Shown piece by piece: positions 2,412 to 16,044 of a stretch of DNA of 18,439 bases. Source of the stretch: Candidatus Micrarchaeota archaeon (lineage in GTDB: Archaea > Micrarchaeota > Micrarchaeia > Anstonellales > Bilamarchaeaceae); the NCBI GenBank assembly GCA_040754495.1, contig JBFMCO010000016.1, positions 1 through 18,439 on the forward strand. Reading direction: 5' to 3'. Each line of letters begins with the position of its first letter. The first letter of the stretch is position 1. Both the position numbers and the translations under genes were made by a program. The notes beneath the pieces are model-generated. The model was not told the DNA's origin. It did no database searches and saw nothing but the letters and a program-made list of their open reading frames with translations.

Positions 2412-5400
2412 ATGGCCGGACCGAGACTCAGCAGGGAGGACGGGAATGCAGAGGGAGGCCGACCGCTCGCGGAGGAGAGGCGCAGGAAGTTCCGCAAATT
2501 CTTTTTGTCCGATTTCACAGCCGCCTCGCTTGCCGGGGTACTGACGTTCTTCAGCGGAAGCAATTTAAACAATCTCGGACCTAATGTTGCTATGTCACAA
2601 CCGGGCCAACCGAGGCAGCGCGGAAGGGCGACAGTAGAGGCGGAGGAGGTCAGGAACCTGGAGCAGTACGCGGTCGATGCGGCCGCTGCCTACCGCCAGT
2701 ACATAACCGGTGCAGACCCTGCCCAGCGCGAGCGCTTCTGGAGCATATACAACAGGTCTTTCGGCGGCGCGACGCTCCATGACAACACCGTCTTCATGAG
2801 CAAGCTGTTCACCGAGCTCGACCGCGTCGGCCAGGACCCCGGCGTCCGCCCGCTGCTTGAGGCGTTCACATCCGACCGGGGCAGGCTCTTCGGTTTCCTC
2901 TGGTCCAACCCGGTGCATTTCACCGACTTTATAGACACCATATTCAACATCAGGAGCGCTCTCGAGAGGGGCGCGGCGACCGATGCGGCCGTAGCGAGGC
3001 TCGCACAGCAATACCGGGACCTCGGCAGCAGGCCGGTCCGGGCAGACACCCAGCTCGCCCGCGTCCGGACCTCGGTGCAGGGCGGCATGGGCATAGAGGA
3101 CGCTGCGCGCGCCGAGCTCGAGCGGACTGGCCGCGAGGATGCGACGGCAAGATACGGGGAGAACCTGACGAGGGAGGTCGGGGCCCTCATGCCCCGCGAG
3201 CAGGCCCGCAGGTGCGCCTCGGCCCTGCGCGATTTCATGCTCACCGGAAACGACGCGAAGAGGCAGGAGTTCAGGCGCATCTTCGACGCCAACACCTCCT
3301 CGGCCTTCATGGACGCATTCACGGTGGAATTCCGCACGAGGATTTACCAGGACACCGCATCCGGCCTCGCCGCGGTAGCGCAGGCCTACAACACCAGGCA
3401 CAGCGGGACAGAGCCGAGCGAATTCGCCACTATGGTGGCCAACCTCTACCGCGCGGCCCAGACCGGCACCCCGGAGGAAATCGAGCGGATGAGGACGGCG
3501 GAAGGGACGAACGTCGTGGACCCGCTCCTCGCGATAGTGGCAAGGGGCATGGCCGGGCGGGCCATCACGCTGCTGCGCGACGTGCTCGAGACCGGGAGCG
3601 GCTCATCGCGCGACGCGTTCGTGCAGATACTGAACGGCCATCTGGCGGTCGTGGTGAACAACGCCGTGCAGATGCCGACAGTCGAGAACAACGACGTTTT
3701 CTGGAATGAATTCACAAGGCGCTATTCGCAGGAAATCGCGCAGAACAGCACGCTTGCGACCCTTGTCCGCGGATTCGGCAGGAACATACTCCCCATAGCG
3801 ATAAGGGACATATACACCGAGCTCTCGAGGGCGACCCCGGACACTGCGAGGCTGAATTCCGACTATGGCCCGGACCTGGTCAGGCTGGTGCAGTCGAACA
3901 TGGCGAGCCTCACGTGGATGATCCGGAGCGAGACCGAGCTCAACAACGAGATTCGGCGGAGGGCCGACGCGCAGGATGGCACCGCGGTCGCGCTCCGCGG
4001 AGTCCGCATGACCGTTCCGAGGGGACGGGCTCTCTCAGACAGCTTTGTGACGCTCGTGGGACTCCGCACGAGGAGGGCGGCCATAGAATCGCCCGACGTG
4101 CTCCAGATACTCGAGCAGAATTACGACCAGCTCTCCTGGCTCTCAGGCTCCGCGGCCGACGTCCAGAGGGAGCTGGACAGGAGGGCGCGCGCAAGGCCTC
4201 CGGACGCGGTCGCGGTCCAGCTCCGCGCGCGCTTCCCGCAGAACGCGGGCCAGTCGCTCTCGCGGGCATACGGAGAGCTTCGCGCGGTCAGGGAAGGGCG
4301 GGCGCAGCTCGTGCAGAGATACGGCGAGGAATTCGTGTCCGTCGTAGAGCGCAACCTCGACAACCTTTACTGGGTGGTGCGGCCGGTGACGCAAATCGAG
4401 AGCGAGATGCAGTCCAGGCGCGACGAGGCGTTCCCCATCGCTGTCTATTCCACGGTAGGCTTCTCGCTAGGCGCGCTGGCAAACGGCATGCGCGACATAC
4501 TCGGCGAACTCGCAAGGAGCAGCCCGGACCGGGCGAGGCTCGAGAGGCGCTACGGCACGGAGCTTGTGCAGTTCGTGGAGCAGAACCGGAGCGCCCTCGG
4601 ATGGGTCACGAGCCAGGACCTGGGCACGGTCATGGACAGACTCCAGCAGCCCTCATCTGATGCCGTGACAAGGCAGCTCCAGACGAGATGGCTCTACAGC
4701 TACACGCCGGTGCAGCTCGTTTCCGCGATACAGAGGGCAAGAAGCGCAACAAGCAGGGGCGGGATAGCGCTTGCCGACGCAAGGGACGCGTACGGCGAGA
4801 CTGCGTTCATGTCTGCGGTGGCCACGCGACAGGCTGTCGCGACGCCCTCGCGCGGCCCGGAAGCCGTCGAGGCTAGAAGGGCCGAGATAGAGTCCAGAAG
4901 GCGGCAGTTCGAAAGGGACCTTGAGTCGCTCGAAGGCCAGATGAGGTATTCAATCCTTGAGCCGGCGCGCGTGGCGCTGCGCGAGCACATCCGCACATGG
5001 AGGGCCGAGAACGAGGCCATCCGCCTTGCCGCGCGCTCGTCGCAGGACCCGGCTGAGCTCGACGCCCTCGTCCAGAGGCAGATAGCCTTAAACAGCGTCA
5101 TGCTGTCGCCCGCAGACCTGAGGAAGTCGGTCGAGATGTCTTTTGCCATGATCCACCTGGCCGAGACCGGGGCGGACATGGGCCGCGGCCCGCTCATCGA
5201 AGGCGTCACATTCAGCGACATGGACATAGGCACACTGCGCAGGCTCCTCGAATGGTACAACGGCCTCGGAAGGACCGGCAAGCAGCAGGTCGTGGGGGAC
5301 ATAGTGGCCGCGGTCATGGGCCGCGCGGACCCCCAGCTCCACCGCTTCATAAGCAGGATGGACGAGCCGAATTTCTTCTCTTCGCTTGTCCGGGCCTACG

Positions 5401-8400
5401 GCGCGGCGCGGACGCGCGATGCCGGGGCGAGGCAGACCATGATCTCAATCTACGGCGAGGACTTCATGAGGGCCGTGGACGAGCAGGCACCGCACCTGCG
5501 CGTCCTTGAAAGCCCGACCGTGACGTACCGGGACCTCGAGCGCGGCGAGAACGCGCTTTTCGCGGCAATAGTCGCAAGGGTCACGCGCGCCATCACGAAC
5601 CCGAGCGGCACCGAGACGCGCGAGACCATGATAAGGCTCTTCGGGGACAGGTTCGTCCAGGTGGTGGAGGCAAACCGCCAGGCCCTTGCGCCGATGGCAT
5701 CTGCCACTGCCGACCTTGCGACGTTCCAGGGGCTGCCGGAGGCAGTGAGGCAGGCGATTACGCAGGCTTATCCGGAAGCGTACAACAAGAGCGTGAGGAG
5801 CATCATGCGCCTCTACCGCAGGCAGGACCAGTTCATGTTCATGGCCATGGTTTCGGTCTATTCAGTCATGAGAGCGAGGCCTGACCGCGGCGCTCCTGCA
5901 GAGCGCGTGCGCGAGTTCGATGCGCGCACCCAGGAGCTTTACCAGGCTTACGGGGAGCAGTTCGTGAGGCTGATTTCCGAGAACATGTCCCAGCTCGGGC
6001 TTCTCGAGAGCCCGACCGTGACTTCACGCGAGCTGAGCAGGGTCTCGGCAGACCTGCTTGAGAGGCTCAACCAGGCATACGAGACCGGGCCGGGCGCAGG
6101 CCGGGCCAACTTCATGCTGAACTTCACGAGGCTGGCAGAGAGGCTGCCGAGGGTTTACACGCAGCTGCGCAGCTCCCTGCTCTTCTCGAACGCCACCGAC
6201 CAGATGTCGGTCAACTTCGCGAACGTCGTGCAGCTCTACCGCCAGGAGTTCGGCTCGGACAACTACCTCTTCAACCAGTATCTCAACATAGATCTCCTGA
6301 GCAGGAGCCTCACGCGGCTTGCAAGGAGATACAACGTCGAGCTGCCGCCCTGGGCGGCAGACGGCTTGGACAGCCCGGAGGAGCTCTCGAGGTTCCTCGG
6401 GACAGAGGCCGGAAGGCGGCTGATAAGCGAGGGCAGGAGGTTCTACGAGGGCATAGAGACGCAATACCTGACCAACAGGGCAGAGCTTCCAGCCGATTCC
6501 GCGCTAAGGACGACAGGCGATTTCAGCGACTCGAATGTTGCCAGCCTTCGCAACGAGCTCTCCATACTGGACGCGCTCTACCTCGGCGTCGCGATGGAGA
6601 GGATAGGCGGCACGGATTCCGCGTTCTCACGGAGCGCCGCGACGGCGGTCATGAATTCCCTCCTCGTGATTTCGCACAGGGACCCGTATCTTGTCGGCCC
6701 CTACCTGCTGCAGGTTCTGCCGGCGATACTGTCAGTCGCGCAGGACGAGCGCACGCTGGTCGCCGGCATCGAGGCGTTCAACCAGATATTCACGCAGAGA
6801 TACGAGTCGGGCACGAGGGACATCGCCTACACCACTGCGCTGAACCGGCGCTATTTCCTCGAGGTGTTCGCCCGCATAGGGGAGCGCCTGCCGGAGGTGG
6901 TGAGCACCTACGACCACAGCAGGCTGGAAGACGAGCTGCGCCTCACTCCCGAGCCGAGGACCGACGAAGGGTATCTCAGCCCGCTTCTCTACAGGTACAG
7001 GCCCGGGTTCTGGCAGGGCGAGGGCCTTGAGCCCCTGCCGACGATGTACGGCCAGTACGGGGCGCCCATCAGGCTGCTGCCGCGGCCGTTCATGCCCACA
7101 AACCCGTTCCTTCCGGTGCCCGGAGGATTCAGGCTGGACTCCGGAGCGGCTGACTTATACAGCAGCATGTACGACCAGCTCAGGCCGCCAGCCGACAGGA
7201 TGTTCCGCCAGCGCGTGCCACCGAGGTTCAGGATAGGCGCGCTCGGGGCATCCACCATAATCCGGAGGATAAACCAGCTTTTCGGGCCCATGCCGGTTGA
7301 CTACAACGATTACTGGCTGAGCGGCACCGGTGAGGCCGGCGCGTTCTACGCGCACGAGGAGCGCGGCGCGACCACGCGTGACAGGGGAGGCGCGGCCGCG
7401 ACAGGGGCCGGAAGGACGATATCCGGAGGAGTCGCGGGCCAGGCAAGATACACAAGGGACGTCACCGAGACGACCTCGGGCGCCGCAGGCGGGGAGCAAA
7501 GGGCGACCACGCAGACCTCGGACATAGTGGACGTGCGCGGGACGGCCGTGAGGCTGCCTGCACCGATGTCAGGACCCGTGCCGCTGCCCCTCTTCGGCGT
7601 CATCCCATGGGACATGTTCGGCATGGGCGAGGGCGTGGGGATACACCGGGCGAGGCAGGAGTTCCATCACGAGAGCGCGGGGACCGAGGAGAGGGTCACC
7701 CCGCCCGGAGGGCCGACGACCGTCACCGAGACGCCGAGAAGCGGAAGGACACGTGGGCTCCTGGACACCTACCAGAGGATAGCGCGCGAATCCCAGACGG
7801 ACATGCTCCTCTTCGTCCAGGGCGAGCACGTCCCGGAGCTGCGCGGCGCTGCTCCGGCAGGCGGCGGCGAGGCCCCGGTGGCGCAGAGAGGGCAGGACAG
7901 GCTGAAAAGCAGGCTTTACTTCGTAACAAGGGAAGGGGACATCTACCAGCTCGCCTACGGGCTTGACACCCTGTCCCAGCTCTCGAACTACCTTTACGCG
8001 GGCGCGAACACCCAGCAGTGGCTGGCTTCGGTGCGCTCCGTCGGCAGGCAGATGCTGACAGGCGACGCGGCGGCCGGCGGCTTCGACGGCATGGCCGTCG
8101 GGTTCACGCTCCCGCGCAGCGGCGGGGACACGTTCTCGGCTCTCGCCTTCGGCCAGCTTGTGCGCAACATGCGCACGATGGACCCGGTGCATGCTGAGCA
8201 GGCCCTGGGCATGGCTGTCACGAATCTTCTCAACGACCGCCGCCAGCGCGACATATATGCGGCATTCTTCCGCGGCGCCGAGACCGTCACGGTCGACCAG
8301 GCGGACAGGACAAGAATCAGGGACCCGCGCTTCGCTGAAGGGACCGGCGAGGTCATGTGGAGGCGCGTGCGCATAGACCCGATGGCCTACCAGGCCGAAG

Positions 8401-10898
8401 TCCGCGCGGTCGGAGGATATCCGCTCACGGTAGGGGCGAGGGGAAGGGTGGAATGGAGGCCCAGCAGGTACCAGACCAACGCCCTCGGAATCACGGCGGC
8501 ATACAGCAACATAGACCTCCTGCGGGAGTTCAGGGCGGCCGATGCGCAGGCCGACCAGATGTACGGGAACATAAACACCATGCTCGTGAACCTCTACCAC
8601 TGGTCAGAGGACGAGGCCAGGGACACCGGTTACCTCATCTCGGGCAGCTATCTTTATGCACGCATGGAGGACTGGACCGTCAGGAACCCGGACGGCACCT
8701 ACACCACCACGCGGGCCGGCCCGGAGGGGACGCCTTCGGAGCACTTCGCGTCAGCCATGTTCATGTACTGGGCCCAGCGGCACGGCGTGCTGATGGGAGC
8801 GCAGAGGGTTCCGGGCTGGAGCAGGATTTACGAGAGGATAGACCGCGCCATGAGGGATATCCAGATGAACCCGGCCAACGAGGCCACCATCCTGCAGAAC
8901 CTTTCAACATCGCTCCGCGAGGACCTGAGGAGGGACATCTGGAGGTTCGCGCTCGCTTACGGATACGACGGCGAGCGCGTGAGGGTATACACGGTCGCGG
9001 GCGGCCAGTGGACCGGCGACGAGACCGCTTACGGCAACCTGTACGGGCTGTTCCTCTTCGGAAGGCCCACGCGGGGCTTTGTGGACATACTCGGACATGC
9101 ATACGGCTACTCGCCGCTCACAATCAGCGAGGACACGTCGGCGACAGGAGGGTTCCAGGTCCGGAGAGGCAGGTATTCGCCGTACGTGGACCTTTATACC
9201 GGATTCGGAGTGGTGGACTGGCCGAGCGTCAGCCTGAACAGGTACCAGAGGGAGGTCACGGTAACGCCGAGGCCGGACCTGCCCGGGGCGGTGCGCGACG
9301 TCTACCGCGAGTTCGGCGGCACGCGCAACCGCGCGAGGCTGGTGCGCCTGTATGGTGAGACGCTTGTCAGGATAATGGAGGAAAGCAGGGACAGCATGAA
9401 CTGGATGGTAAGGCCGGCAGCCGAAGTCCGGAGCGAACTCCAGACCCGCCTCGAGGCCGAGGACCCGGTCGTGATGTCCATGATGAACCTCCGCAGGGGC
9501 GTCGAAGGCGGCCGCCAGGCTGTGCGCGAATCCGATGCCCAGGCGGTAAGGGACATCTATCTCGAGCTCCGCAAGGCCAACCCGGACAGGGAGCGGCTCG
9601 AGCGCGAGTACTCGAGGGACCTCATAGACCTCGTGGAGCGCAACAGCGTGGACCTTGAATGGATAATGCTCCCGCCTGCGCGCATGAGCGCCGAATTCAC
9701 GCGCAGGGCCCAGCGCCAGGGCACTGTCGAGGCCAGGATTGCGAACGAGGTGCAGCTCACCGCGATTTCGACGCAGGACCAGCTCACGGGCCCGGAGCTG
9801 AAAAGGCTGTTCGAGCAGAACATGATTGACGTGATTGTCGGCGCGACCAACGCGGAATCGCGCGCAGGCCTCAGCGCAGACAGGTACGACGTGCTCCTCG
9901 GCAGCCACCTATCCAGCCCGGAGGGGCAGAGGGCGAGGAGCGGCACGTACTACGTGCTGCACAGCCCAGTTGCGGAGAGGGCAGAGGCACGCGGCTCGCT
10001 CGTCATCGGGGACGAAACCGACCTCGACGAGTGGATGAGGAACGGCCACGAAATCGGCCGGGGCATCAGCCGCGTCGAAATCGGCCGCGAGGGAAGCGAC
10101 TACAAGCTCACCTTCTCCGGAGACAGGAGGCTCCGTGCCTTCACCGCCGAGAGGGTGGTCGGCGGCATCTCGATACCGCTGCGCGGCTCGGATTACGACA
10201 ACTACGTGCCGGGCGGCAACTGGACCGTCGGCGGCCTGATGCACATCCTGCAGGACCACAGGATGGACCTCCTCGGCGGAGCCTTGTACGGAACGCGCCA
10301 GTTCGGGAACGAGCGCTGGGACCAATGGACCGTGACGCTCTCCGGGCGCCTCCAGGGCACGAACACCGCCACCGTCAGCGAGAACTGGTACGGCTACGTG
10401 TTCTTCAATTCAACCAACAAGCAGATCGTGTTCGCGAGCAACGACGTTTTCAACAACTCGGATGAGATGCGCACGGTCTGCCAGACGATTGGCGGCGCCC
10501 AGTGCACCAACCTCAGCGAGCTTTCGCGCATGACCGGAGGCGCCGGAATCACCTGGGCGAGGGCGGACGTCATCACCGGCGACAGGCTGAACCTGCACCT
10601 GTTCTTCGAGGGCGGCGCAGAGACGTACAGGAGGTTCTCGCAGCCGGCCGAGGGCCAGACGCCTGACCGGGACCGCCAGTTCGTCTTCAGGGCCGGGGCG
10701 GGGCTGGAATACATCCGGCAGAGCCAGCAGAGCGTTGTGCCGACCATCTACTCGCTCCAGCTCGGGGCGCAGAGCGGCACGTGGCCCCTGCTCCCGGGCG
10801 AAGTAACGAGGCCCGAGATGCTCAACCCGTGGGCGACCTCCATAGAGTCAGGCGTGCCTGGCTGGTCGCTCATGCTCTATGGCAGGGTACAGTGGTAG
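2412..10898 (+). CDS. Giant hypothetical protein (2828 aa from ATG 2412; 2768 aa from ATG 2592): helical repeat region, Pro-rich linker, C-terminal amphipathic beta-strand (beta-barrel-like) region
   Basis: 8.5-kb uninterrupted ORF with strong G/C third-position bias, internal protein repeats and a terminal aromatic residue (RVQW-stop). The start is ambiguous between 2412 and 2592. Confidence 0.92.
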   Translation: MAGPRLSREDGNAEGGRPLAEERRRKFRKFFLSDFTAASLAGVLTFFSGSNLNNLGPNVAMSQPGQPRQRGRATVEAEEVRNLEQYAVDAAAAYRQYITGADPAQRERFWSIYNRSFGGATLHDNTVFMSKLFTELDRVGQDPGVRPLLEAFTSDRGRLFGFLWSNPVHFTDFIDTIFNIRSALERGAATDAAVARLAQQYRDLGSRPVRADTQLARVRTSVQGGMGIEDAARAELERTGREDATARYGENLTREVGALMPREQARRCASALRDFMLTGNDAKRQEFRRIFDANTSSAFMDAFTVEFRTRIYQDTASGLAAVAQAYNTRHSGTEPSEFATMVANLYRAAQTGTPEEIERMRTAEGTNVVDPLLAIVARGMAGRAITLLRDVLETGSGSSRDAFVQILNGHLAVVVNNAVQMPTVENNDVFWNEFTRRYSQEIAQNSTLATLVRGFGRNILPIAIRDIYTELSRATPDTARLNSDYGPDLVRLVQSNMASLTWMIRSETELNNEIRRRADAQDGTAVALRGVRMTVPRGRALSDSFVTLVGLRTRRAAIESPDVLQILEQNYDQLSWLSGSAADVQRELDRRARARPPDAVAVQLRARFPQNAGQSLSRAYGELRAVREGRAQLVQRYGEEFVSVVERNLDNLYWVVRPVTQIESEMQSRRDEAFPIAVYSTVGFSLGALANGMRDILGELARSSPDRARLERRYGTELVQFVEQNRSALGWVTSQDLGTVMDRLQQPSSDAVTRQLQTRWLYSYTPVQLVSAIQRARSATSRGGIALADARDAYGETAFMSAVATRQAVATPSRGPEAVEARRAEIESRRRQFERDLESLEGQMRYSILEPARVALREHIRTWRAENEAIRLAARSSQDPAELDALVQRQIALNSVMLSPADLRKSVEMSFAMIHLAETGADMGRGPLIEGVTFSDMDIGTLRRLLEWYNGLGRTGKQQVVGDIVAAVMGRADPQLHRFISRMDEPNFFSSLVRAYGAARTRDAGARQTMISIYGEDFMRAVDEQAPHLRVLESPTVTYRDLERGENALFAAIVARVTRAITNPSGTETRETMIRLFGDRFVQVVEANRQALAPMASATADLATFQGLPEAVRQAITQAYPEAYNKSVRSIMRLYRRQDQFMFMAMVSVYSVMRARPDRGAPAERVREFDARTQELYQAYGEQFVRLISENMSQLGLLESPTVTSRELSRVSADLLERLNQAYETGPGAGRANFMLNFTRLAERLPRVYTQLRSSLLFSNATDQMSVNFANVVQLYRQEFGSDNYLFNQYLNIDLLSRSLTRLARRYNVELPPWAADGLDSPEELSRFLGTEAGRRLISEGRRFYEGIETQYLTNRAELPADSALRTTGDFSDSNVASLRNELSILDALYLGVAMERIGGTDSAFSRSAATAVMNSLLVISHRDPYLVGPYLLQVLPAILSVAQDERTLVAGIEAFNQIFTQRYESGTRDIAYTTALNRRYFLEVFARIGERLPEVVSTYDHSRLEDELRLTPEPRTDEGYLSPLLYRYRPGFWQGEGLEPLPTMYGQYGAPIRLLPRPFMPTNPFLPVPGGFRLDSGAADLYSSMYDQLRPPADRMFRQRVPPRFRIGALGASTIIRRINQLFGPMPVDYNDYWLSGTGEAGAFYAHEERGATTRDRGGAAATGAGRTISGGVAGQARYTRDVTETTSGAAGGEQRATTQTSDIVDVRGTAVRLPAPMSGPVPLPLFGVIPWDMFGMGEGVGIHRARQEFHHESAGTEERVTPPGGPTTVTETPRSGRTRGLLDTYQRIARESQTDMLLFVQGEHVPELRGAAPAGGGEAPVAQRGQDRLKSRLYFVTREGDIYQLAYGLDTLSQLSNYLYAGANTQQWLASVRSVGRQMLTGDAAAGGFDGMAVGFTLPRSGGDTFSALAFGQLVRNMRTMDPVHAEQALGMAVTNLLNDRRQRDIYAAFFRGAETVTVDQADRTRIRDPRFAEGTGEVMWRRVRIDPMAYQAEVRAVGGYPLTVGARGRVEWRPSRYQTNALGITAAYSNIDLLREFRAADAQADQMYGNINTMLVNLYHWSEDEARDTGYLISGSYLYARMEDWTVRNPDGTYTTTRAGPEGTPSEHFASAMFMYWAQRHGVLMGAQRVPGWSRIYERIDRAMRDIQMNPANEATILQNLSTSLREDLRRDIWRFALAYGYDGERVRVYTVAGGQWTGDETAYGNLYGLFLFGRPTRGFVDILGHAYGYSPLTISEDTSATGGFQVRRGRYSPYVDLYTGFGVVDWPSVSLNRYQREVTVTPRPDLPGAVRDVYREFGGTRNRARLVRLYGETLVRIMEESRDSMNWMVRPAAEVRSELQTRLEAEDPVVMSMMNLRRGVEGGRQAVRESDAQAVRDIYLELRKANPDRERLEREYSRDLIDLVERNSVDLEWIMLPPARMSAEFTRRAQRQGTVEARIANEVQLTAISTQDQLTGPELKRLFEQNMIDVIVGATNAESRAGLSADRYDVLLGSHLSSPEGQRARSGTYYVLHSPVAERAEARGSLVIGDETDLDEWMRNGHEIGRGISRVEIGREGSDYKLTFSGDRRLRAFTAERVVGGISIPLRGSDYDNYVPGGNWTVGGLMHILQDHRMDLLGGALYGTRQFGNERWDQWTVTLSGRLQGTNTATVSENWYGYVFFNSTNKQIVFASNDVFNNSDEMRTVCQTIGGAQCTNLSELSRMTGGAGITWARADVITGDRLNLHLFFEGGAETYRRFSQPAEGQTPDRDRQFVFRAGAGLEYIRQSQQSVVPTIYSLQLGAQSGTWPLLPGEVTRPEMLNPWATSIESGVPGWSLMLYGRVQW
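2554..2570 (+). promoter_or_regulatory. Putative BRE+TATA promoter for the giant gene (leaderless start at ATG 2592)
   Basis: gcggaagcaaTTTAAAC. The TATA starts 28 nt upstream of ATG 2592, and the element closely resembles gcggaacgaTTTAAAA, which has the same spacing before ATG 12180. Confidence 0.55.
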
Positions 10899-13522: not shown

Positions 13523-14194
13523 TCAGGCGACCGCCTTGAGGAAATCGGCAACCGCTACGCCCATGGGCGCATCCGGGTTGATGTCGGCGTATATCCCGCG
13601 CCGCCCTGTGATGGACGGCATGTCGGCAACGCGCATTATAGGGCGGACGCCTGCGCCCCTTATCCTGAGGAGGAAACGGATGCCATCTTCTGGAATCGCC
13701 GCGGGATTTGTTGCCGGCGGGAATGGCAGTGGCATGCGCGTCTTTTTTTCAGGCAGGCCGCAACCGCCCGAGAATGGGACGATGGACGGTAGCAGGATGA
13801 TGGATTGCGGGATGACTGCAGGCGCGGTGCCGGAAAGGTCGAATGCGCCGGGGATGATGAAAAGCCCGGCCCCCGGAGCCGCCAGCAGGTCCGCTGCAAC
13901 GTGCTTAATCGCTTCGCTCCAGGGCAGACTCCAGCCGGTGCCATCATCCACGATGTCCAGGCCCCGCCGGAAGGCGCGCCCCACCGCTGGGTAGGCAAGC
14001 AGCTCGTCTGCCCAGAGCGGGAACGCATCGGGGATGCCCTTCCATCTTTCGCTTCCGACAAGATAGTCGTCGAGAAGGGGGTTCGGCGGGAGCTTCTTCC
14101 CGCGCTCTTCGGCGAGCTGCCTTGCGCCAAGGTATGGAGCCTGCAGTCCGAGGGGGCTTATTACGCCGTCCGCCGCTGCCTTCTGGTATTCCAT
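13523..14194 (-). CDS. Hypothetical protein
   Basis: ORF fills the gap between the PMM and prs stops. ATG 14194 (MEYQK) is preferred over TTG 14224, which lies in an AT-rich promoter-like stretch. No recognisable catalytic motif. Confidence 0.75.
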   Translation of the reverse strand: MEYQKAAADGVISPLGLQAPYLGARQLAEERGKKLPPNPLLDDYLVGSERWKGIPDAFPLWADELLAYPAVGRAFRRGLDIVDDGTGWSLPWSEAIKHVAADLLAAPGAGLFIIPGAFDLSGTAPAVIPQSIILLPSIVPFSGGCGLPEKKTRMPLPFPPATNPAAIPEDGIRFLLRIRGAGVRPIMRVADMPSITGRRGIYADINPDAPMGVAVADFLKAVA

Positions 14195-14236
14195 CTTCCC
14201 ACGATAATAGATAGAAAACGACAATTTTTAACACAA

Positions 14237-15076
14237 TCAGCCCTTCAGCAGCGGGACGATGTCCACTTCTGCGACAGGATTCTGGATGGAGTTCGTCGTG
14301 AAAACCGAATCGGCAGCCTTCTGCAGCTTCGCAAGCGAATCGTTCAGGAAGAAGCCGTGGGTAGCAGCGCACAGCACCTTCTTCGCCCCGCCCTTCTTCA
14401 CGTTCTCCACGGCTTTCAGCATCGTCCCGCCGGTCGAAATCATGTCGTCTATTATGAGCACGTTCTTGCCCGAGACGTCGAATTCCCGCTCCACCTTCTG
14501 CACGGAGCGGTAGGCCTCCTCGCCCTGGTCGTAGCCGCCGCGGACCTTGCTCATGCTCTTTCCGCCGAACTCCGAGACGAGGTAGTTCGCGCCCTGGTCG
14601 GGCGATATGACCTCGAGGTGCTCGAGGCCGAGCTTCTTGCGGGCATGTTCCACGAGCAGGCGGTTCGCGCTGACGTTATGGATTTTCAGGCCCGCGTATT
14701 CCGCGTCCCCCTCTTTCTTGAGGAAATGGCAGTCCACTGTCATGACTTTCACAGCGCCGAAATCCGCAAGGAGCTTGCAGAGGACCTGGGCAGAGAGCGC
14801 CTCGCCCATCAGGAACGTCTTGTCCTGGCGTGCGTAAGGGAGATAAGGCGAAACGAGCGTGACCCTGGCCCCGACGCGCTTGAGGGTGTGGAGCATCTGC
14901 GCGGCGTTGAATATCGCCGAGTTCTGCTTGGGATAGAGCCGGTGGAAGAGGACTACGTCCTCGCCCTGGCAGGAGGAGATGTCGTTGATGCGCATGTAGC
15001 TGTCGCCGTCCGGGAAAAGCTTTATCTCGATATTCGGCTCGGCGACCTCGGTGAAATTCGGCGAAATCAGATGCAT
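14237..15076 (-). CDS. prs: Ribose-phosphate pyrophosphokinase (PRPP synthetase)
   Basis: Motifs FPDGD, PYLPYARQDK, ISPDQGA, PRPP-binding VLIIDDMISTGGT and ATHG. Confidence 0.95.
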   Translation of the reverse strand: MHLISPNFTEVAEPNIEIKLFPDGDSYMRINDISSCQGEDVVLFHRLYPKQNSAIFNAAQMLHTLKRVGARVTLVSPYLPYARQDKTFLMGEALSAQVLCKLLADFGAVKVMTVDCHFLKKEGDAEYAGLKIHNVSANRLLVEHARKKLGLEHLEVISPDQGANYLVSEFGGKSMSKVRGGYDQGEEAYRSVQKVEREFDVSGKNVLIIDDMISTGGTMLKAVENVKKGGAKKVLCAATHGFFLNDSLAKLQKAADSVFTTNSIQNPVAEVDIVPLLKG

Positions 15077-15096
15077 GATTGGGATGGGCGGCTACA

Positions 15097-15129
15097 ATAT
15101 AAAATCCTGACGGAAACGCTGGTTTAAAA
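15097..15129. promoter_or_regulatory. Divergent promoter pair (prs / HEXXH gene)
   Basis: TTTTATAT on the minus strand (15104-15097), 28 nt upstream of prs ATG 15076. TTTAAAA on the + strand (15123-15129), 31 nt upstream of ATG 15154. Confidence 0.55.
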
Positions 15130-15153: not shown

Positions 15154-16044
15154 ATGAAGGGCGAGCCATACCTGGACCGCATCCGGCCAAAGACACTGCT
15201 CCGGCCGCCGCGCGAGCTGGACGAGCTCCGGCGCCCGTGGTTCAGCAACGGCACCGACCCGAAGGTCGAATCATGGGTGAGGCACGGCTCGCGCCCTGCT
15301 CCGACCGGATTGGGTTCGCACGGAACCGGGGTCGTAAGCTGGATGAGCGGGGGCGGAGGCACGGTGATGACTGAGGAGGCCACGCCGGAGCAGTTTGCCT
15401 CGCTAAAAACGCATATGGAGGAGGAGTACTTCCGCGAAGGCGGACCGGCCGCGGAAGCTCATGCCAAGCTCACATCATTTCTCGGGACAAGGTCCGTAAC
15501 GCTGTCCCTCGAACACCAGCATACAACGAGGCCGCCGGAAACGCTCAGCCCTGAGGTGTACGCGCTCACTCTCAAAATACTGGAGGCGCTGCCTGAATGG
15601 CATCTTGGCCATTCCAATTTCACAACGCTTTGGATTGGAGGATGGGGAAACGGCGCCGCGAAGTATTCCGAGTATTCGGAGCCGGCTGTCCACATGTTCG
15701 AATGCGCAATCAGCGGGCCGAAAAGGAATTATATTGCCCTCCTCCTCCATGAGGTCGGCCACTCTTTCCACCACATGCTCGGCGCTCCAGACCGAAAGAG
15801 GCTTGAGGGCTTGTCCCTCGTGGCCCGGCCGCTAATCGGGATAGATTACCTTGGCGGGAGCAGCGAGCGGCTGGGATACCAGGACTCCGCCAGCGAGTTC
15901 ATAGCCGAGAACTACCTGAATTTCGTGGCCCGCGGACCGGAGCTTGAGATGGCCGCGGCTTCCCTCAGCGGCCGGCGGAGGGAGGCATGGACAGAAGTCC
16001 TCGACATATACGTGAGGAATTTCGGCATGATGATGTACATCTAG
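15154..16044 (+). CDS. Putative zinc metallopeptidase (HEXXH zincin-like) hypothetical protein
   Basis: IALLLHEVGHSFH motif with downstream SEFIAENY as a candidate third-ligand helix. It has its own TATA box and no signal peptide is evident. Confidence 0.7.
   Translation: MKGEPYLDRIRPKTLLRPPRELDELRRPWFSNGTDPKVESWVRHGSRPAPTGLGSHGTGVVSWMSGGGGTVMTEEATPEQFASLKTHMEEEYFREGGPAAEAHAKLTSFLGTRSVTLSLEHQHTTRPPETLSPEVYALTLKILEALPEWHLGHSNFTTLWIGGWGNGAAKYSEYSEPAVHMFECAISGPKRNYIALLLHEVGHSFHHMLGAPDRKRLEGLSLVARPLIGIDYLGGSSERLGYQDSASEFIAENYLNFVARGPELEMAAASLSGRRREAWTEVLDIYVRNFGMMMYI

Follow-up and report, generated by a model that had tools for sequence, protein, structure and literature searches.

A giant Micrarchaeota protein with a predicted porin-like C-terminal sheet

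The C-terminal part of P0001, a giant protein of a Candidatus Micrarchaeota archaeon, is predicted to form an amphipathic sheet resembling the wall of an outer-membrane protein (OMP). P0001 is encoded on a stretch of 18,439 nucleotides (the window; contig JBFMCO010000016.1 of assembly GCA_040754495.1), which spans contig C16 in full; the genome measures 1.63 Mb and is 80% complete. The best-supported interpretation of our models is that residues ~2175-2828 are a porin-like amphipathic sheet of ~20 strands within a presumably exported archaeal giant protein, and the curvature of these strands appears to be like that of a 14-22-strand porin or TonB-receptor wall. Transmembrane beta-barrels are a hallmark of diderm bacteria and the organelles that descend from them, and their insertion is tied to Omp85; to our knowledge, archaea do not make outer-membrane-type barrels. 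An initial annotation of the window had proposed that a very large barrel starts at around residue 1630 of P0001. Nucleotide 7300 indeed corresponds to residue 1630 of open reading frame (ORF) 2412-10898, and the strand-like peptides that had been quoted as examples are present at residues 1634, 1670, 2004, 2072, 2177, 2206, 2618, 2639, 2707, 2757 and 2779. The parts of the gene referred to below are as follows (AF2, AlphaFold2; HMM, hidden Markov model; pLDDT, predicted local distance difference test score).

2412-10898, + strand: giant gene P0001, a single ORF of 2828 amino acids
2493-2555, + strand: N-terminal hydrophobic segment after an Arg/Lys cluster, residues ~28-48 (hydrophobicity windows)
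3798-6080, + strand: helical region with ~8 copies of a ~70-amino acid repeat, residues 463-1223 (self-built HMM)
7314-8510, + strand: beta region I with ~19 long predicted strands, polar, residues 1635-2033 (AF2)
8568-8927, + strand: helical subdomain between the beta regions, residues 2053-2172 (AF2, low to moderate pLDDT)
8934-9263, + strand: eight amphipathic strands, residues 2175-2284 (AF2 models)
9291-9752, + strand: two further copies of the 70-amino acid helical repeat in an inter-strand connection, residues 2294-2353 and 2378-2447 (HMM)
9885-10046, + strand: small alpha/beta domain before the last sheet, residues 2492-2545 (AF2)
10059-10895, + strand: barrel-like module with the best support, a sheet of twelve long antiparallel strands at residues 2550-2828 (AF2, pLDDT mostly 80-96)
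10860-10895, + strand: conserved C-terminal strand with a terminal Trp, which is Trp or Phe in most relatives

Two AF2 jobs, covering residues 2231-2828 and 1600-2260, were run with alignments of 31 sequences and reached predicted template modelling (pTM) scores of 0.55 and 0.35, respectively. The model of residues 2231-2828 has a mean pLDDT of 85.7 and contains 4 + 12 long antiparallel strands: four strands (2236-2284) are followed by a helical insert, the small alpha/beta domain and twelve strands of 9-18 residues that run from residue 2550 to the end of the protein. Foldseek placed OprC, FecA, Omp32, OmpG, FhaC and BamA at the top, with template modelling (TM) scores of only ~0.25, and when VIA-align was applied to the Foldseek list, Z scores of 11-13 were obtained over 181-236 aligned residues, with FhuA, HasR, CymA, maltoporin, FhaC and BamA among the best matches. 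In an exhaustive VIA-align run against 48,161 PDB chains, which is independent of Foldseek, the best 50 matches are all bacterial or mitochondrial membrane beta-barrels. The Z scores range from 13.1 for CymA and 12.7 for HasR to 9.6 at rank 50, compared to a stated background of 7-8 for the best match and 4-5 at rank 50. The tightest superpositions are with 16-18-strand porins (181-203 residues at 3.0-3.4 Å), whereas 12-14-strand barrels are covered more fully, but with a root-mean-square deviation (rmsd) of 6-8 Å (14-strand barrels almost in full at ~6 Å). In the ESM Atlas, the closest clusters comprise TonB-dependent receptors and ShlB/FhaC proteins, with TM scores of 0.32-0.37 by query and 240-307 aligned residues. 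PDB profile searches with both halves returned nothing meaningful. For the last ~600 residues, both the predicted fold and the matches to known structures are beyond chance. Matches of the 2231-2828 model mostly start within its first 30 residues (2231-2260), which hints that strands 2236-2284 may align together with the C-terminal sheet. Co-folding of segments 1630-2045, 2170-2290 and 2485-2828 gave weak support for their association, with an ipSAE of 0.38 compared to 0.05 for the best control, a contact agreement of at least 88% and a partner pLDDT of at least 51. In the calibration of this score, 58 of 80 solved complexes and 2 of 110 mismatched pairs came up to this mark, but values of 0.60 or under comprised only 7 of the 80 solved complexes and both passing mismatches.

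The topology of the last sheet points in the same direction. In the DSSP strand list of the AF2 model, the connections on one side measure 7, 3, 3, 5 and 8 residues and those on the other side 2, 14, 1, 29, 11 and 29 residues, and the chain ends on the short-turn side. Such a separation of short turns from long loops, with the C-terminus on the side of the turns, is, in the model, the arrangement of an OMP. Seven of the eight ten-residue hydrophobic windows in the last twelve strands adjoin short turns, and the eighth (at 2757) lies ~4 residues away. By strand parity, the helical insert and the small domain are also placed on the short-turn (cis) side.

The two faces of the sheet differ in conservation. 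Across ten windows and 31 homologues, charged residues occupy 0.4% of the cells of the hydrophobic face, which has 62% identity with interchange of Leu, Val, Ile, Phe, Ala and Met, whereas the polar face has 76% identity and conserved Arg, Glu, His, Thr and Gly residues (Mann-Whitney p = 0.0015, in a test run on the giant-protein family alone). For the buried core of a soluble sandwich, the opposite conservation pattern would be expected. The edges of the hydrophobic band are occupied by Trp, Tyr and Phe residues, and an uncharged belt ~10 residues wide, with aromatic edges and a less conserved presumptive lipid face, was found in residues 2175-2828 but not in residues 1635-2033. In the window at residue 2177, the aromatic/hydrophobic face is nearly invariant. 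The same conservation asymmetry has been described for transmembrane barrels (Jimenez-Morales & Liang 2011, PMC3206045). Averages over whole strands had shown only a trend (p = 0.08) and mis-assigned the faces of long strands, and were replaced by the ten 10-residue windows.

The 12-residue C-terminal end with its terminal Trp, to which the initial annotation had drawn attention, is present, and its aromatic residue is conserved across most of the family: most complete C-termini end in Trp or Phe, including those of distant members of 1750-2100 amino acids, and the alternating hydrophobic residues are conserved as well. The conserved Gly of this strand is one position off the canonical beta-signal motif, whose receptor (BamA/BamD) would be missing here. 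Two of the only three Cys residues of the protein, 2690 and 2698 (window positions 10479-10505), form a conserved pair, eight apart, in a 29-residue loop; on this long-loop side, the pair might be joined as a disulfide or bind a metal. Alternating polarity in itself, which had been read as a barrel signature, did not exceed chance. A count of non-overlapping windows of ten residues whose alternate face is uncharged and mostly hydrophobic gave 2.9 windows per 100 residues for residues 2550-2828, compared to 1.5-2.9 in seven E. coli OMPs (FhuA, BamA, OmpF, OmpA, usher, LamB, BtuB) and 0.3-3.9 in 20 soluble proteins from the same species. The count was rejected as a discriminator, since fimbrial subunits, MalE and other soluble proteins are not told apart from OMPs by it.

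The part of the proposed barrel that lies further upstream fared differently. The strands do not form one continuous run from residue ~1630, as AF2 predicts helices at 2053-2172 and at 2290-2480, the latter comprising the two repeat copies, and then the small alpha/beta domain. Of the very large barrel, residues 2231-2828 are predicted to be barrel-like, with best matches that are all membrane barrels, whereas in residues 1635-2033 both faces are polar, the pLDDT is low and amphipathic windows are few (0.96 per 100 residues for 1630-2045). Strands 1635-1790 are rich in Gly, Thr, Ala and Arg, and the length of beta region I varies among the homologues. The model of residues 1600-2260 is poor: the mean pLDDT is 59.7, and values above ~77 are found only in the long hairpins at 1639-1714 and 1749-1829. 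Its structural matches are OMP barrels with Z scores of 8-11.3, mostly at an rmsd above 10 Å, and ApoB-100 (Z 9.3), lipopolysaccharide-binding protein and vitellogenin, as well as teneurin and SprA, are among its weak matches. An ESM Atlas feature search with residues 1750-2290 gave no usable match.

The N-terminal hydrophobic segment is among the three most hydrophobic 19-residue windows of the protein. Most full-length homologues have such a segment (best 17-residue window 0.8-2.0 on the Kyte-Doolittle scale), which generally follows basic residues and precedes a conserved Asn-rich motif. We therefore infer that residues ~28-48 are a Sec-type signal or signal-anchor, by which the protein would be exported or anchored at its N-terminus. 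The repeat copies of the helical region start at residues 463, 560, 616, 693, 791, 993, 1067 and 1158. This region has no Pfam match, and no look-alike was found by an ESM Atlas feature search with residues 440-1240. The two C-terminal repeat copies were found with HMM E values of 1e-12 and 5e-28 and are helical in the AF2 model with a pLDDT of ~90. The most conserved stretches of the protein are residues 1400-1630 (window positions 6609-7301) and 1851-1950, with a column identity of 0.66-0.71. In the former, a hydrophobic segment in which Pro occurs lies at 1425-1443, and a linker rich in Pro comes right before the beta region.

A word-indexed search retrieved 30 full-length relatives of 2170-3080 amino acids with 30-72% identity, the few named ones being assigned to Candidatus Micrarchaeota or Bilamarchaeum. 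When a profile of the last 344 residues was searched against 1.84 billion representative proteins, 42 matches were obtained; all are C-termini of giant proteins or their fragments, and all named ones are from Micrarchaeota. Of 151 sampled genomes of the phylum, 6 carry the module, all of them from one family (5 of 27 besides the genome of the window), with 3 of 7 sampled genomes of the genus and 2 of 4 of a second genus being carriers; the genome of the window has one copy. The giant gene is a lineage-restricted accessory gene. A description of this giant-protein family was not found in our literature searches.

Compared with TonB-dependent transporters (FhuA, HasR, BtuB, FecA) and 14-18-strand porins (CymA, maltoporin, Omp32, OmpG), the module has the same predicted meander and wall curvature (Z 11-13, 180-236 residues), the same short-turn and long-loop sides, the uncharged variable band, the aromatic edges and the C-terminal aromatic residue. 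It differs from them in that it has no sequence-family match, is found in an archaeal host in which no Omp85 was found, and is the tail of a protein of 2828 residues whose sheet is interrupted by helical repeats. As there is no sequence-family link to bacterial OMPs, the likeness in fold is most simply explained by convergence. Bdellovibrio PopA, a lipid-trapping porin-like protein of a cell that attacks another (PMC12228718), was matched with Z scores of 10.9-11.8 over 192-196 residues at 3.3-3.4 Å, which is no better than ordinary porins, and is unrelated in sequence. The same study mentions a possible distant archaeal PopA relative in Altiarchaeales (PMC12228718).

The initial annotation had suggested a passenger-plus-barrel layout. 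P0001 shares with Type Va autotransporters (EspP, NalP, BrkA, Hbp) a putative signal, a long N-terminal part and a C-terminal barrel-like module, and the 1600-2260 model matches, among others, Type Va beta domains (Z 9.5-10.6, rmsd ~13 Å). In contrast to them, it has neither a PF03797 match nor a beta-helical passenger, and has at least 16-20 amphipathic strands instead of 12; in addition, strand parity suggests that its large soluble parts are on the cis side and not translocated through the barrel. The position of the helical insert and small domain on the short-turn side argues against an autotransporter-like passenger and favours a tether in which an anchor and a stalk are followed by a distal barrel. 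The layout is therefore probably that of a tether-type OMP rather than one with the passenger outside and the barrel as anchor. Tethers of this kind are Deinococcus radiodurans SlpA and OmpM-like proteins, which have an inner anchor with an SLH or other wall-binding domain, a long helical stalk of the coiled-coil kind and a large C-terminal barrel. P0001 would show the same order of anchor, very long helical region and large C-terminal beta module, with its non-barrel parts on the short-turn side by strand parity. Its putative anchor, however, is a hydrophobic segment with no S-layer homology (SLH) domain by Pfam, its helical part consists of a novel 70-amino acid repeat, and SlpA and OmpM chains are absent from the best-50 structural match lists.

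Based on these observations, we propose that P0001 may be an exported giant envelope protein of one Micrarchaeota family, in which a basic N-terminus and a hydrophobic signal or anchor segment are followed by ~1,550 residues of helical repeats and a C-terminal third that is predicted to be rich in long antiparallel strands. The module would be a lipid-embedded barrel, or a barrel wall that is completed by other strands or copies. The helical region would hold the barrel away from the cell, with the side that carries the C-terminus, the helical insert and the short turns towards the producer. The barrel would be placed in a second lipid layer, which may be an outer layer of the archaeal envelope itself or the membrane of its host cell, and could act as an anchor, possibly also as a channel, at the contact site. 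It would have to fold without Omp85/BamA, by spontaneous insertion or with the help of other, possibly neighbouring, gene products. Placement of the module in a second lipid layer or a host membrane is put forward tentatively, as the likeliest of the readings considered, though somewhat less than probable. The bolder proposal, that archaea have independently evolved a true transmembrane barrel with a cytoplasmic-membrane anchor, a ~1,500-residue stalk, a barrel of ~20 or more strands, no Omp85 and a second bilayer, we consider unlikely. If it were true, this second bilayer might be an outer layer of the archaeon, which would revive the disputed two-membrane reading of ARMAN (archaeal Richmond Mine acidophilic nanoorganisms) cells, or a host membrane, in which case the protein might be a conduit of the symbiosis. 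If the module really sits in lipid, both the fold would have been invented convergently and its assembly in vivo would be independent of BAM; the module, of ~350-650 residues, would also offer a molecular candidate for how DPANN symbionts make contact with their hosts or breach them, or else for the second envelope layer whose existence in Micrarchaeota is disputed.

Several observations weigh against a lipid-embedded barrel. P0001 has no Pfam match at E <= 0.01, PF13505, PF03797, PF00593 and PF01103 match none of the 31 family members at E <= 1, and six-frame searches of the genome of the window for OMP Pfam families were negative. In line with the suggestion in the initial annotation to search for Omp85, PF01103 was looked for; neither this genome nor any of five further carrier genomes (89-93% complete) gave a match, while it was detected in 7 diderm bacterial genomes used as a control. 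The best low-rmsd alignments span only 10-14 strands. The strands of beta region I are polar on both faces and have a low pLDDT, and an amphipathic sheet with a hydrophobic face would also suit protein-protein or lipid-binding sheets, ApoB-100 being matched by the weaker model. The patchy occurrence of the gene in the sampled phylum and genus means that it is no core envelope part. Finally, an outer membrane of the archaeon itself is doubtful, as the envelope of the one Micrarchaeon so far examined in culture consists of a single membrane with an S-layer on top, correcting an earlier two-membrane reading (bioRxiv 10.1101/2021.04.28.441871). The abundant S-layer protein SLP_Mh of Ca. Micrarchaeum harzensis has a mass of 101 kDa (10.1101/2021.04.28.441871), whereas that of P0001 is ~310 kDa, as estimated from its 2828 residues, a comparison by size alone.

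One might speculate instead that the module is not in a membrane at all and is a sheet in a canopy, an adhesin or an S-layer-associated lattice, whose uncharged face is buried by oligomers, by the helical repeats or by another giant protein. This is a possibility that we take seriously while regarding it as doubtful. It agrees with the S-layer of the cultivated relative, the lack of detectable barrel-assembly machinery, a patchy, accessory distribution of the kind usual for surface or host-range proteins, and the failure of the window count to tell OMPs from soluble beta proteins, and further lysine-poor giant ORFs in the genome are possible partners. It is at odds with the absence of any soluble fold among the best 50 of 48,161 chains, with the pairing of a variable hydrophobic and a conserved polar face, which is the reverse of a normal buried core, and with hydrophobic windows that form a ~10-residue band at the short turns and do not extend over whole strands. 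Distinctly less likely, in our view, is an open lipid-binding or lipid-transfer sheet, comparable to an apolipoprotein B belt, a bridge-like groove or a PopA-type trap, which would move lipids between the host and its metabolically reduced symbiont. The ApoB-100, lipopolysaccharide-binding protein and vitellogenin matches of the 1600-2260 model, the PopA matches of the C-terminal model and an SGNH/GDSL hydrolase domain encoded in the adjacent gene would fit such a function; however, these structural matches rank below ordinary barrels and have a high rmsd, none of the best-50 lists contains a TamB-, VPS13- or ATG2-type chain, and the alternation of short turns and long loops is typical of closed barrels.

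It is also conceivable, if improbable, that a beta- and Gly-rich sequence was forced into a barrel-like meander by the prediction and that the true fold is different. The shallow alignments, the pTM scores, the poor 1600-2260 model and the low Foldseek TM score would be compatible with such an artefact, but the C-terminal strands have a pLDDT of 80-96, and the turn and loop lengths, the face-specific conservation and the conserved terminal aromatic residue agree with the model. That the gene is bacterial, through a chimeric contig or the recent transfer of a bacterial OMP, would be suggested by the fold resemblance alone and is hardly credible. The contig is archaeal, from Micrarchaeota, and non-chimeric, as shown by its archaeal marker neighbours and by the same synteny on a 302-kb Micrarchaeota contig, so that the taxonomy check bore out the archaeal host named in the initial annotation. 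On the 3' side of the giant gene, Pfam identifies an archaeal tRNA 2'-O-methyltransferase (aTrm56), a phosphoglucomutase (PGM), a DJ-1 protein and a geranylgeranyl reductase; on the 302-kb contig, the same small gene, Trm56 and PGM come after the giant homologue P0020. The GC content of the giant gene is 64.9%, compared to 54.5-64.2% in the neighbouring genes of the window, and the composition is therefore no clear sign of foreign DNA. As the 42 profile matches likewise all belong to this giant-protein family, with its named members confined to Micrarchaeota, a bacterial or chimeric origin was refuted.

Two genes adjoining the giant gene have counterparts in a relative, L001.

1-1989, + strand: upstream gene, its 5' end cut by the contig end, lysine-poor; orthologue of the 521-amino acid gene that precedes the giant gene in L001
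11030-11440, - strand: small lysine-rich gene of 136 amino acids; 66% identity to a 134-amino acid gene at the same position in L001

The small gene adjoins the giant gene in both genomes compared, and its L001 counterpart has no Pfam match on record. Likewise, no Pfam match was obtained for the ORFs at 13805-15127 (+ strand, 440 amino acids) and 15154-16044 (+ strand, 296 amino acids). The SGNH/GDSL domain of the upstream gene (PF13472, E 9e-20) covers residues 254-420 of the partial protein, and on either side of this insertion the protein shares 36-42% identity with that encoded at L001:7817-9382. The 521-amino acid L001 counterpart lacks the domain, which is a lineage-specific gain beside the giant gene. 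The upstream giant of L001 has no beta module at its end and is unrelated to P0002. Lysine accounts for only 0.4% of the residues of the giant protein and 0.5% of those of the upstream protein, with arginine at ~11.5% (11.4% in the giant protein), compared to 2.5-11% lysine in neighbouring genes of broadly similar GC content. At least five other giant ORFs of the genome (1746-6147 amino acids, on contigs C42, C57, C15, C67 and C49) are equally lysine-poor, and the proteins of this group are presumably exported. In L001, two small ORFs (74 and 88 amino acids, L001:9428-9928), which have no equivalent in the window, lie between the 521-amino acid partner gene and the giant gene. They may represent a mobile two-gene cassette; a 52%-identical copy of the 88-amino acid ORF is found on contig C29 of the genome of the window.

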